From: Eledone cirrhosa
Lineage: Eukaryota
Direction of reading: 5' to 3'
Length of the DNA: 64,000 nucleotides
Assembly (NCBI GenBank): GCA_964016885.1
Contig: OZ024744.1
Coordinates: 77,314,001 to 77,378,000, forward strand
A program made the position numbers and the translations under genes. The notes below the pieces were generated by a model that was not told where the DNA came from, did no database searches, and saw only the letters and a list, made by a program, of their open reading frames with translations. Positions 17,435 to 63,582 of this stretch are shown here, piece by piece. Positions within the stretch are counted from its first letter, which is position 1. The number at the start of each line of letters is the position of its first letter.

Positions 17435-17645
17435 ATATGAAAAGATTCAGGACCACGACGGCTGAGGTCCGGCCGTTTCGACAGCTAGATCCATTCGAAC
17501 TTTTCGGATCTAGCAGTCGAAACGGCTGGAGCTCAGCCGTCGGAGTCCTGAATCTTTTCATATTACCCAATCTACTACCCCAAGGATCGAGACCCTGGGT
17601 GGGTTATGATTGTCTAGCTGGTTTTTACCACACCCTATCTAGTAT
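17435..17645 (+). mobile_element. Family C short element with 5' foldback
   Basis: Inverted arms atgaaaagattcagga...tcctgaatcttttcat around gtcGAAACGGCtggagctcaGCCGTC. Confidence 0.7.
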
Positions 17646-17690
17646 ATAAATATATATAGAAGTGGTTACACAACAGTTAGTTCACCATAC

Positions 17691-17728
17691 CGAGACCAAT
17701 TGTTTCACCTTAGCGGATCCTCAGCTCG
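17691..17728 (-). ncRNA. Degenerate hammerhead-like motif
   Basis: Reverse complement reads cgag-CTGAGGA-tcc-gctaa-ggt-GAAA-caattg-GT-ctcg. The position expected to be U16.1 deviates. Confidence 0.4.
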
Positions 17729-17972
17729 TAATCAGCTTCCACCTAACTCGTCCCATGGACTGAGTGCTCTACCACTACGGATATTTCCTTCCAGTGTTCT
17801 ACCACTATATATATATATATATATTTATTTATTAAAATAACGAGCCCTCTTTGGATTTTAGTCTTCAAATTTATTATTATTACTATATATATATATATAT
17901 ATATATATATATATATATATATAAAATAAAGTTAAATAAAAGTCAAATGATTAAAATTTAGCTTCGTTTATT

Positions 17973-18027
17973 ACTGCTATATATATTTCAGTGACAGCCA
18001 TCTTTGGCTGTGACCTCTTCAGGCAGT
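17973..18027 (-). ncRNA. Type I hammerhead ribozyme (family D, inverted copy)
   Basis: Exact reverse complement of 18151-18205. Confidence 0.8.
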
Positions 18028-18150
18028 TTGAATTAGTATGGTATAGACAAGTACATATGTTGTTTAGGTGTATGCTATTGTCAATACTCTGATATGCCCA
18101 GTTCCTTGTTGGGTTGTTAATTCAATGGGGAACTGGAGTGACTAATTCAA

Positions 18151-18205
18151 ACTGCCTGAAGAGGTCACAGCCAAAGATGGCTGTCACTGAAATATATATA
18201 GCAGT
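18151..18205 (+). ncRNA. Type I hammerhead ribozyme (family D) with palindromic stem III
   Basis: actgc-CTGAAGA-ggtc-acagcca-aaga-tggctgt-cact-GAAA-tatata-TA-gcagt, followed directly by aataaa. The core is intact. Confidence 0.85.
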
Positions 18206-18508
18206 AATAAACGAAGCTAAATTTTAATCATTTGACTTTATTTTACACTACTCCGGAGTAACCAAACCAACCTGCGCACTTTGTCGAGTGCTCCAGCCTG
18301 CATACTGAGGTGTTGGTATACAACCAACATAAACTCAAAATCTCTCTCTCTCTCTCTCTCTCTCTCTATATATATATATATATATATATATATATATATA
18401 TATATATATAGATAGATAGATAGATAGATAGATATATATTGAGAGAGGGAGGGAGGGAGGGATATGTGAAGAGACAGATATAGATAGATAGGTAAATGAG
18501 TTGTACGT

Positions 18509-18605
18509 GACTAGAACTGTTTCATACAAATGGAAAAGATGAAACAGTTCTAGTCCTGTAGAAGTCATTTCTGTTTATATAATAAAGATGCCTATACTCT
18601 ACCAT
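18509..18605 (+). mobile_element. Family A element fragment with foldback in ribozyme stem II
   Basis: gactagaactgtttcat...atgaaacagttctagtc inverted, followed by ctgtagaagtc. Confidence 0.6.
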
Positions 18606-59517: not shown

Positions 59518-59842
59518 TCAATTAATAAAGGACGCTAACATCTTCAACTTCGCATTTTCCTCTTTATAAATATACTCCGTCATCCTTGTTTTAAAGAAAT
59601 GGTATGACGTTGGTTGAGTGCTACAGTGAATTGCATCCTTGTATACCGAATATACACACTCACACACACACACACACATATATATATATATATATATATA
59701 ATTCAAGAAATAAGAGTAACATGGTTGGCTGTACAATAAGGGCTTTATTCACAGTGCTGACAATTGTTTCTTTGATCTGGTAGGTCTGGACTATCTCTAA
59801 GTGGATTACCTATAACGATAACTTGTTATCCCGAATATATAT

Positions 59843-60242
59843 ATAACAAAGGAATTGTGGTAAGGAACCAGATGGACCATAACGCACCAGAGTACTCAAT
59901 ACTTAGGGTAGTAGAATGGGAAATAGGAAAAAGTATGACCCCGACGGCAGAGCTCAAGCCGTTTCGACGGCTATTTCTGAGTCCAGAAATAGCTGTCGAA
60001 ACGGCTATATATATATATATATAGGAACGAGTAGGACCCCGACGGCTGAGCTCAAGCCGTTTCGACGACCAATTTCCTGAGTACATATATATATATATAT
60101 ATATATATAACGAAGGAAAAGTGGTAAAGAACCAGGTGGACCATAACGCACCAAAGTACTCAATACTTAGGGTAGTAGAGTGGGTAATAGGAACAAGTAA
60201 GACCCCGACGGCTGAGCTCAAGCCGTTTCGACGGCTAATTCT
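59843..60242 (-). mobile_element. Three family C elements separated by (TA)n
   Basis: Copies at 59843-60006 (with foldback), 60021-60080 and 60107-60242. Confidence 0.8.
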
Positions 60243-62342
60243 CTCTCTCTATATATATATATAGAGAGAGAGAGAATGTCAAGCTGGAAAAAACACGGGA
60301 AATATATTTAAGGGTCTGTTTTTCTTTTTTGATTCGTCAAGGTGACATTATTGAAAAGATAATATTATTGAAAAAATGAGAGGTACAATTCTTTTTTTTT
60401 TTTAAAGGTTTATAATGTATATAAAGTATTATCGGTTTCGATGTATTATCAAAATTCATCTTGTCAAATGTTGAGTATTGAAATAAAAATTAAAAAGAAT
60501 TAATAGGAGTTAAAAACTAAAAATTAAAGATTTAAAATTAAAATCAACTTTGTTCTGTGAAGAAAGACAATTGCTGCTATCTTCACTTACCACCAAATTT
60601 TGAGCAAGAAAGATGGAAGAAAACTTACTCTAACATTTGATTTTAATTTTAAATCCTTAATTTTTAGTTTTTATATCAATACTCAACATTCGTGATGTTT
60701 AATTTGCAGCTTTGATGTTGGACTTGATGCTGGTCTTAAGGTTAATGTTGCAGTTAATTCTAGCTTTGCCTGTCGTTACTATATACATGCCTACAACCCA
60801 AGCCGTTGGTATATTCCACTTATGCATCCATTCCATGTACATTTCATATATACTATTATGAAAAGGATATTCTACACATTCACAATATATATAACATGTT
60901 TGAGTATACACACACGGTCCCCTGTGTCCACCAGTCATGAAATCTGTCTCGTGTGCATGGTTGATGTGCAGGTTCTTACCCAGTCCCTTGGATCGTCAGT
61001 CCCTCTGTATCTTATATAACCCTATGCACCACAGTCTTCAAGTATTTTATGCAACTTTATGCACATCCCAATAATGTCTGGGTGGCGTGAACAGATACCC
61101 CCTCTGCATATTTATCATGTATACACTCTTTTTTCCAGTATTTTATTTTATTTTATTTTATTTTATTTTATTTTATGTATGTACACGCATTTATATATAG
61201 GTGCCACCCATGTTATCTGTGATTAGGGCATGGCTACTACGTAGCTATTACATTTATGCATACTGTGTATGACTTTCAGGCTTATATCGCCACATGAATG
61301 GATTGGGTCCAAGCCTCAAGAATGTTGTCTCATATGATATTTTATACGTCATGTACACAGTTGCGTGTGTGTGTGGATGTGTAGGTATTCATCAAGTATG
61401 TGCTTTTTTAGAGATGTATAAGCATGCCCATGCGCGGGTACATGTATGTATGTGTGTGCATGTACATATGCATACATGCATGTGTATGCATGTCTGGGTG
61501 GATGTAATTGTATGAACATGTCTGTGTAAGTGTATGCATGTATATGTTTTAGATCTTCCATTTTCTCATCTGTATATATGCCCAGCACCTTAACTATATA
61601 CGCTTTCCTGAGTACAGTGTGTGTGTGTAGATATGTGTATATTTATCAAAAATACTTTTGAAATAACTTTTTTGAAAGGCTCTTTAAAGCATTCTTTTAA
61701 AACCGTTCTTTTTATAGGGTTTTATTTGAAATGTGTGTTTTTTAAGGTATTTTGAGGATGTGTTTTCTGAAACGTTCTTTTATATGTTTTTCCATTTTAA
61801 AATAAAATTCCTTCTAAGTATTCGCTGCACATTCAATATTGACTGTGATTGTCCCATATAATACAGTTGCGGGTGTGTATGTGATCGCTGTGGGTATATA
61901 AGTGCCCATATGTATCACGCCTGCGTGAAACATGGACATGGGTGCGGGCACCTACAGTTCAATATACAACCCCTTACCTTCTACAGTAGTAATTCCAATA
62001 TAAGAAACAACTTTGACTGACAGGTGGCAAATGAAAGGAACCAAATATACGACGGCCATGAGTGGCCAAAAATACCGATGACGTGTACAATTCTTGACCA
62101 CTCATCGAAAGACAACAACAGGATTTAAGCTGCCGAGTGAAGGCAGCGAGTGTAAACGGACATTTGGAAACTCTGCTTCGTAGAATCGAGACGTATCTGA
62201 GGACCTTGCGATTTCAGAGTCAGGTTGGATCATTGCATCGATCGTGCTTCGAGCTGGTCGCCAGAGAAACGATTGTAATATGTCTAATAAATCTTATTCG
62301 TCGCACCACTGATTCTCCATTTCTTATGTGATATATATATAT

Positions 62343-62538
62343 AGGAACGAGTAGGACCCCGACGGCTGAGCTCAAGCCGTTTCGACGGCTAATTCTGGAC
62401 CAGAATTAGCCGTCGAAACGGCTTGAGCTCAGCCGTCGGGGTCCTACTCGTTCTTATTACCCACTCTACTACCCTAAGTATTGAGTACTTTGGTGCGTTA
62501 TGGTCCATCTGGTTCCTTACCACATTTCCTTCGTTATA
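62343..62538 (+). mobile_element. Family C element with a perfect 54-bp foldback
   Basis: 62345-62398 is the reverse complement of 62400-62453. TA tracts flank both sides. Confidence 0.85.
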
Positions 62539-62734
62539 TTATATATATATATATATGTTTGTGTATATATGTATATATATACATAGTAAGTCTCCAATTT
62601 AAGTTACGTTCCAAGAGGCCATTTGTTAGTTAGTTGATTTGTCCATAAGTTGATCGTCTAACACTGTAGGTACCAGTAAGCCCATATATGTTACATTGAT
62701 ACTGCACAGTTCCATATGAGTGATATATATCTAG

Positions 62735-62878
62735 AGAGGTATATATGACATGTAATATAGAGGTATATATGACATATAATATAGAGGTGTATATAACATA
62801 TAATATAGTGGTTTATATAACATATAATATAGTGGTTTATATACAGTATATAGAAGAGGTATATATAACATGTAATAG
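62735..62878. repeat. 24-bp tandem repeat, about 6 units
   Basis: Unit agaggtatatatgacatataatat. Confidence 0.85.
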
Positions 62879-63047
62879 TTGTTTCTACTTTTGGCACAGT
62901 ACATTACTGGTACTTTATTTTATCGACCCCTAAGGATGAAGCAAAGTGAACCTCGGCGGGATTCAAACTCAGACTATAAAGGGCCGTAACTCTAGGCTGC
63001 AAAGCATGGCGTCTGACCTTCTACCGATACTGCCAATTCCCCGCCCT
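62875..63047 (-). mobile_element. Family 1 SINE
   Basis: A box, B box and core present. Confidence 0.85.
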
Positions 63048-63384
63048 TCAATACTGTAAAGCTAATGACAATAAATTGGTAAAGAAAAAAAGTACTTTTT
63101 TCAATTCTGTGAAAGCAGAATGGTACTCCATACCAAAAATACGATTTCGGCTTGTTTTTATGCTGCAAAAGCAGGAACCCAGGGCCCGAAAGAGCCTACA
63201 AAAACGCAAATTTCAAACACAGACAATTTCTTTCTTTTTTTTTTTCTTTTTTCAATGACACTGTTCGTATTTGCGGAAGTTCGTAAGCAGGATGTTCGTA
63301 AGGTGGGAAACATAATGTATATATATATATATATATATATATATATATATATATATATATATATATATATATATATATATATAT

Positions 63385-63582
63385 TAAAATAACAGATTAA
63401 AGTTTAAGCAAAGAATCGCTGAGTTTCAGAAGATCCCGTTAAGGGTGAAAGCACCGATTCTTTGCTTAATCTTTAATCTGTTATTTTAATAAATATTTGC
63501 TCTACGGTTCTTATATATTTGATATATATTTATCCTTATCGAGCCCTCTTTGGATTTTAGTCTTCAAATTTATTATTATTAC
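63385..63582 (+). mobile_element. Family F element with foldback, in (TA)n
   Basis: Arms ttaaaataacagattaaag...gaatcg / cgattctttgc...gttattttaa around cagaagatcccgttaagggtgaaa. Confidence 0.75.

Follow-up and report, generated by a model that had tools for sequence, protein, structure and literature searches.

In a 64,000-nucleotide (nt) stretch of the Eledone cirrhosa genome (assembly GCA_964016885.1, contig OZ024744.1, positions 77,314,001 to 77,378,000 of the forward strand; hereafter the window), AT-rich DNA of a 3.0-Gb genome, we analyzed 11 palindromes. They are head-to-head pseudo-long terminal repeat (pseudo-LTR) ends of endonuclease-bearing (EN+) Penelope-like elements (PLEs) with type I hammerhead ribozymes, inserted in (TA)n. 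Judging from the sequence, the arms of these short PLE-end inserts stop at the likely capped 5' end of the element RNA, and each insert was likely made from two complementary DNAs (cDNAs) that ran to the cap and were then joined. A first-pass annotation of the window had instead proposed a block at the folded hammerhead: reverse transcriptase (RT) would stall there on an RNA that is uncleaved, multimeric or circular, and would continue on the nascent cDNA.

Two 3' ends are fixed in every family; one includes a tail and the other lacks it, and they lie 70–85 nt apart. The hammerhead and both 3' ends are found within about 140–160 nt downstream of the stop point. Exactly one arm carries the tail in 62/62 pairs of family A, 62/67 of family B and 15/17 of family F, pairs scored with zero tails being mostly probe misses. 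The outer ends on both sides run into (TA)n in most copies inspected. The one-sided tail and the inverted layout bear out the earlier view that these are inverted 5' copies of the PLE type.

Position and nature of the 5' stop

Arm 5' ends were mapped in a 1.42-Mb sample (165 stretches) onto real long, non-inverted reference copies. The purine of an initiator-like motif was taken as position 0; relative to the hammerhead core, it is located 6 nt before in family A, 5 nt before in F and 42 nt after, inside stem II, in B. Ends were counted in a stop window of 12 nt (−5 to +6). When loci selected by patterns demanding reach to the stop were removed, 56/80 at-risk insertions of A, 68/81 of B and 20/59 of F ended there, compared with 3.8, 4.4 and 2.6 expected, which is an 8- to 15-fold excess. 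The further-reaching arm of pairs fell into the same 12 nt in 42/57 (A), 49/67 (B) and 13/17 (F) cases, and non-inverted copies also stop there (22/64, 24/59 and 7/50, respectively). For these counts the 62 pairs of A were reduced to 57 unique junctions, and solo arms with a score below 15 or with duplicate flanks were removed, so that 64 of 76 (A), 59 of 65 (B) and 50 of 59 (F) were kept. Turning points are therefore clustered in A, B and F, as the first-pass annotation had claimed, and not uniformly distributed, the outcome it had named as speaking against it. In family C, 12/13 pairs extend beyond the core on its upstream side by 47 to about 90 nt, both values being lower bounds.

The stop is marked by a non-template G at position −1. 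By hand count, it was present in 71/100 cases for family B (first 100 of 6,534 matches) and in 79/100 for family A (first 100 of 1,613 matches); for family F the value was 53/80 (first 100 of 2,291 matches, minus 20 rows in which the template continued). At a control start 3 nt further in, G was found in only 14/100 (first 100 of 1,736 matches; Fisher p = 1e-16 versus 71/100 in B). Exclusion of every G that the partner arm could have templated left 40/61 in B, 54/69 in A and 37/64 in F. Moreover, B palindromes with a 1-nt centre were found at 601 loci, and this centre is G:C in 44 of the first 50, the usual template base being T; a B subfamily bearing C is, by estimate, only about 4% as common. 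At the 5' ends of full-length L1 and SVA insertions, an untemplated G has been attributed to copying of the cap (parts of PMC3287187 and PMC2912911). Within the window, the extra G is seen at 20472, 26895, 59979 and 63421.

Promoter-like motifs are found at and upstream of the stops. In family A, TATAAATA is located 29–33 nt upstream of the stop in 6/7 of the intact promoter variants inspected (24 nt in one), and a CCAAT box lies further upstream. In family B the motifs are CCAAT, a CArG-like box and, 30 nt before the stop, a TATA-like motif that varies; family F has an initiator-like motif only. We conclude that the stop point is very probably the capped 5' end of the element RNA. If so, transcription of family B would start inside the hammerhead, and only the read-through 3' copy could fold into a ribozyme.

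Stalling on the ribozyme makes a different prediction, namely that ends accumulate where RT first meets the folded stems. This was not observed. At the 3' edges of stems I, III and II the end rates were 0.002–0.005 per nt, which is background, compared with 0.03–0.06 in the stop window, and ends pile up only after the whole motif (A, F) or most of it (B) has been copied. The stops of A and F lie beyond all copied stems, the A motif folds weakly (−7.9 kcal/mol, z 0.0; its lowest-energy fold is not a hammerhead), the position of the stop relative to the ribozyme differs between families, and families C and D turn far upstream. In addition, a stall leaves the position-specific, cap-like G unexplained. 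What speaks for stalling is that the turning points of A, B and F overlap or adjoin the ribozyme. We consider the stall model largely refuted already and its chance of being correct very small; the ribozyme is likely found at the junction only because the hammerhead sits at the transcript start.

The first-pass annotation fared better with respect to the state of the template. Furthest ends within 2 nt of the cleavage site numbered 0/99 in A, 3/99 in B and 0/66 in F; because no pile-up is seen there, the template is uncleaved, as had been proposed, and a cleaved 3' fragment was rejected as template. A multimeric or circular template was not supported for the short inserts: a circle has neither an end nor a cap, and circular RNA was rejected for this reason.

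Some observations count against reading the stop as a capped end. The 12-nt window was set post hoc, after the data had been inspected. The B stop falls within the weak apical helix of stem II, where some stalling is possible, and end rates are mildly raised at +7 to +15 in A and B (about 0.01 per nt), a further point for stalling. Family F has no clear TATA box, and the TATA-like motif of B differs among subfamilies. Finally, the stops of A, B and F resemble splice acceptors (pyrimidines followed by YAG). Penelope has a 5' intron (parts of PMC2377424 and PMC4209133), and the stop could be a 3' splice site; the template would then be an RNA that had undergone splicing or part of its processing, and a tiny upstream exon would have supplied the extra bases. 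However, no common sequence is found upstream of the G among the matches listed, and A2 copies begin at the G, which is 30 nt beyond the TATA box, and not after the CAG a few nt upstream. Splicing thus has a slim chance of explaining the stop, which we continue to read as a capped end.

Junctions between the two arms

Subfamily differences from arm to arm came to 1.7 versus 5.1 in family A and 2.6 versus 6.8 in family B (42 pairs each), and 0 of 5,000 permutations gave a value as low. The arms of a pair share subfamily variants, indicating that both derive from one RNA or one source copy. At 112 loci of family A both arms begin at position 0 and enclose a 3-nt centre, and this centre is C-(A/T)-G in 50 of the first 50, where the template would yield G-N-C. 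Thirty of these C-(A/T)-G loci were fetched. They represent several subfamilies, and the central A lies in the cDNA of the tail arm at 17 loci and in that of the tail-less arm at 11, the tail being undetected at 1 and two tails being present at 1. The same type of centre was also found in families B and F. A single amplified palindromic master was considered as the source of this junction and rejected, as several subfamilies and both orientations are represented and B and F have the same centre. The simplest reading, which these sequences suggest, is that two cDNAs, each ending in a cap-derived C, were joined via one added A.

The reach of the arms provides a second line of evidence. The tail-less arm extended further 5' than the tail arm by at least 3 nt in 26 pairs of A, as opposed to 11 in which the tail arm extended further; the corresponding numbers were 28 and 16 in B, and 8 and 8 in F. 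Among young pairs with identical arms, the tail-less arm was further in 8 and the tail arm in 2 of 18 (A), and in 3 and 4 of 14 (B). Microhomology was found at 21/57 junctions in A, 26/67 in B and 8/17 in F.

A single cDNA could in principle produce the same layout from the same capped end, if it folds back at the cap, is copied into the second arm and its end is trimmed or joined at the tail-less site. Such a fold-back accounts for the constant sharing of subfamily variants between arms, for the microhomology, and for the nearby junction sequence that is copied in many longer inserts. On the other hand, it requires the tail-primed strand to reach at least as far as its own copy, and the tail-less arm goes further in many pairs, young ones included; centres of 0–1 nt are too tight for a priming hairpin; and the C-A-G centre reads from either arm (17:11). 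Two points lessen the force of this comparison. The excess of further-reaching tail-less arms is partly due to ascertainment: when both starts are required to lie at or before +40, the tail-less arm is further in 19 versus 11 pairs (A), 18 versus 16 (B) and 5 versus 7 (F). Besides, 0 pairs have arms from clearly different subfamilies, which fold-back on one template predicts likewise. We nevertheless consider joining of two cDNAs the probable route, albeit with slightly less confidence than we place in the overall picture, and a single folded-back cDNA unlikely as the general explanation, while fold-back with later trimming is possible for some junctions. The first-pass proposal that RT generally switches to the nascent cDNA is likewise weakened, given that the tail-less arm often reaches further 5' and that the extra G can be present on both arms.

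A published model for the same layout is self-priming on an antisense RNA template, which yields a head-to-head palindrome (Arkhipova et al. 2013; parts of PMC3846280). In our data, however, the extra G is on the sense strand at the sense initiator, on one or both arms, and an antisense 3' end would not carry a G. For these families we therefore regard antisense self-priming as highly improbable, even more so than splicing.

Fold-back chimeras occur in sequencing libraries, and they or assembly errors could mimic the palindromes. Yet the arms are diverged in old copies (83% at 17495), exactly one arm is tailed, and both ends lie in (TA)n. Furthermore, Illumina reads of restriction-site-associated DNA (RAD) from two other samples show opposite-strand joints 2–3 nt from the A stop. 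This read check covered the family A reference L024 only; of four runs, the two RAD runs were informative, one, from another organism, gave 0 reads in the roughly 1% of it that was sampled, and one consisted of contigs only (88 Mb). In the two RAD runs the joints lie at 1478–1479 of L024, where the stop is at 1476; one joint is supported by 8 and 12 reads (4 and 7 starts) and two other joints by 5 reads each. The depth of the RAD reads also steps about 7-fold at the A stop, partly because divergent promoters fail to align. A step of more than 100-fold in the contig run was left out of account, as starts are not visible in contigs. An artefact is the least probable of the explanations weighed here. 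The same reads contain head-to-tail joints of 74–77 nt enclosing one whole A hammerhead (L024:1462–1539), with 67 and 38 reads for the main joint; they represent a small tandem unit derived from family A.

Returning to two joined cDNAs, we propose the following sequence of events. An RNA polymerase II promoter in the pseudo-LTR would start a capped RNA at the stop point. The element's enzyme would cut both strands of a (TA)n target and prime both ends at two internal start sites of the uncleaved RNA, for which there is in vitro precedent. Use of the 5'-proximal pair of start sites would leave only 65–160 nt to copy. RT would then run off the end of the RNA, adding a C opposite the cap and often one further A, as the extra G suggests, and the two cDNA 3' ends would be joined by a template jump or by microhomology of 1–8 nt. 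The scheme as a whole, in which PLEs integrate by priming from two ends on a single RNA that is capped and has not been cleaved, and in which the end-joined cDNAs leave a C-(A/T)-G double-cap seal at the centre of the insert, has in our view slightly better than an even chance.

Elements, ribozymes and the palindromes of the window

Families A, B and F are pseudo-LTRs of EN+ PLEs. In family B, a 786-amino-acid (aa) open frame lies between two B copies 3.1 kb apart and contains DKTG, YRDD, a Cys linker and a GIY-YIG-like end, the motifs being identified by eye. In family F, a 645-aa frame is located between F copies 3.26 kb apart; units carrying these single frames of B or F are 3.1–3.3 kb long, with pseudo-LTRs on both sides. 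A long copy of family A encodes a 238-aa piece with 45% identity to the C-terminus of the B frame and a weak Pfam match to GIY-YIG (E = 0.005). Pfam gave no match for the other 6/7 frames, and the RT was not recognized in that search. Exact patterns were counted genome-wide: the A core occurs 31,535 times, the A tail 13,756 times and the B tail 41,829 times; 12,289 matches were obtained for B reaching past the stop and 30,149 for F.

The cores of A and C are canonical type I hammerheads, with CUGANGA, GAAA and UH at a three-stem junction. The B hammerhead is a U3-A8 variant with a long stem II, its minimum-energy fold is a three-way junction, and the core is broken in some B copies; the F core carries a U4A change. 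An Rfam scan of the window returned no hammerhead family among 150 of 164 rows, only microRNA-like matches on microsatellites and palindromes. Non-LTR retrozymes were considered and rejected, as the window inserts are single inverted pairs and not tandem non-coding monomers, and parent copies carry an open reading frame (ORF).

A head-to-head inverted repeat is present at all 11 sites, at or within about 10 nt of the axis given by the first-pass annotation. Four of these sites belong to family A (20471, 26896, 27560, 18530), four to B (17495, 35480, 59977, 62399), one to C (57725) and two to F (46192, 63422), and all four families bear hammerheads. The inserts, together with three pairs that are absent from the first-pass annotation, are as follows.

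17437..17639: family B2 pair; both arms begin a few nt downstream of the initiator-like A of stem II; tail on the + strand.
18494..18570: family A pair, old and degenerate; both arms begin at the 3' end of stem II; spacer of about 15 nt.
20406..20607: family A head-to-head insert; tail-less arm 20406–20471 (−), reaching the initiator-like A; single extra G at 20472 (read on −); tail arm 20473–20607 (+); core 20478–20484, GAAA 20497–20500, predicted cleavage after 20516.
26770..26960: family A2 tail arm 26770–26894 (−); lone central G at 26895; second arm beginning as A2 at 26896.
27433..27629: family A-type tail arm (−), ending at 27557, the 5' edge of stem I; beyond it a short piece in inverted orientation, an insertion and the remnant of a second core.
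35298..35553: family B2 pair; both arms extend some 6 nt beyond the initiator-like A; a piece is duplicated near the junction; tail on the − strand.
46040..46259: family F pair; − arm to +2, + arm from GAAA; joint with 5-nt microhomology (46191–46195).
57555..57810: family C pair; − arm passes the core (57653–57659) and ends at 57728, 69 nt upstream of the core; + arm from 57726, within stem II.
59843..60008: family B pair; tail arm (−) from +4; short + arm from 59980, the initiator-like A, with a G before it at 59979.
62341..62537: family B pair; almost perfect palindrome centred on 62399; arm starts +1 and +3; tail on the + strand.
63383..63585: family F pair; tail arm (+) from 63422, the initiator-like A, with a G before it at 63421; tail-less arm from +30.
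512..1017: family D pair, newly found; axis 640; the hammerhead core, at 799, lies about 150 nt downstream of it.
1861..1975: family B pair, newly found; one arm from +2, the other from inside the tail.
17949..18229: family G pair, newly found; identical arms, 103-nt spacer, axis 18089; cores 18016–18022 (−) and 18156–18162 (+).

As for the positions assigned to the axes by the first-pass annotation, the 5' edge of stem I in A (20471, 26896, 27560) and stem II in B (17495, 35480, 59977, 62399) agree with our mapping. An axis just upstream of the core in F (46192, 63422) holds for the further-reaching arm. Stem II at about 57725 is correct for one arm of the C pair, but the other reaches 69 nt upstream of the core. 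The list of sites was also selective, as the window additionally holds the D pair (axis 640) and the G pair (axis 18089, 103-nt spacer).

Several further observations concern these families. The second arm at 26895–26960 changes from A2 to family H after about 16 nt, at the hammerhead core common to both, so that two families are joined at the ribozyme by a switch or by recombination. Several family D copies begin at a AAAATGGCG motif about 45–50 nt upstream of the core (window 750–760 and other copies), which we presume to be a YY1-like site typical of transcript starts. At L084:1455–1552, the 5' half of the B hammerhead lies upstream of the inferred start and overlaps the CArG-like and TATA-like motifs; this half is degenerate in some subfamilies. 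Family B pieces are arranged head to tail with a period of 257 nt at L258:3512–4167. One old A insertion is present in many copies of a larger repeat with identical flanks (L001, L005, L006, L007, L013, L022), and in long A copies the element also includes, ahead of its promoter, a TG/TA microsatellite of more than 1 kb (L024:1–1000).

The window also contains other repeats. Positions 24132–24700 are a tandem array with a unit of about 84 nt and CTGATGA-like motifs within the units. A very abundant interspersed repeat of 190 nt, possibly a short interspersed nuclear element, was found at 54831–55030 and about 25 other places, and one of its copies is the palindrome at 14089–14175. A (TA/TG) microsatellite tract of 3.5 kb occupies 4740–8234.

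Relation to known systems and implications

The layout described here is known from EN+ PLEs with an inverted pseudo-LTR, which share the head-to-head arms, the tail at one end, the palindromic junction, the TATA- and initiator-like motifs in the pseudo-LTR, the (TA)n targets and the ORF with a C-terminal GIY-YIG domain (parts of PMC3846280 and PMC8557442). In comparison with what those parts describe, the tail is longer here (70–85 nt instead of 30–40), and the junctions are fixed at one base per family with a cap-like G. The model proposed there is antisense self-priming (PMC3846280, in part), whereas our data point to a sense, capped RNA. The promoter of Drosophila virilis Penelope is internal and TATA-less (PMC2377424, in part).

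The closest experimental parallel that we considered for priming is the Anolis Poseidon element PAc in vitro (parts of PMC11167929), where the tail is set by two internal RT starts, cutting and extension take place on both target strands, the template RNA is uncleaved and the hammerhead lies upstream of the start sites; 5' junctions, inversions and the cap are not treated in those parts of the paper. Twin priming of L1 also resembles the proposed route in that two target ends prime one RNA, cDNAs anneal by microhomology and an untemplated G is added (parts of PMC2912911 and PMC3287187). According to the same parts, the second primer of L1 uses a variable internal site and the cDNAs copy different segments, whereas here both start sites are fixed, both cDNAs copy the same segment and the cap G ends up in the middle of the insert.

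The hammerheads correspond to the minimal PLE hammerheads described in part of PMC4209133 in being type I and located in pseudo-LTRs, with a short or palindromic stem III, dual motifs on opposite strands and, in family B, U3-A8. They differ from that description in that opposite-strand pairs are only 20–80 nt apart and that the inferred RNA start of B splits the motif. Non-LTR retrozymes (bioRxiv 10.64898/2026.07.22.740005, in part) have the type I hammerhead and the relationship to PLEs in common with our inserts, which, in contrast to them, are not tandem monomers and have an ORF-bearing PLE as source.

A cap signature at PLE junctions was not found in the literature searched, most subscription papers and supplements being outside its scope. 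The layout and the principle of the cap G are already known; most likely, what is new is the junctions with a cap or double-cap signature, a testable clue to how PLEs integrate. How tandem and inverted PLE ends form is named as an open question in part of PMC8557442, and the printed models differ, one invoking antisense self-priming and the other priming of both strands. The tens of thousands of very short inserts in this genome keep base-level traces of the reaction, and the tempting but wrong link from ribozyme folding to inversion is removed. The effect on host biology is probably small. For the elements themselves, a cap-derived G on one or both arms would, if the reading is true, fix the template as sense, capped and uncleaved RNA, rule out antisense self-priming for these families and favour two primed cDNAs. 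The junctions would then map PLE transcription starts from genome sequence alone, and direct predictions for the existing in vitro PLE system follow from the cap reading.

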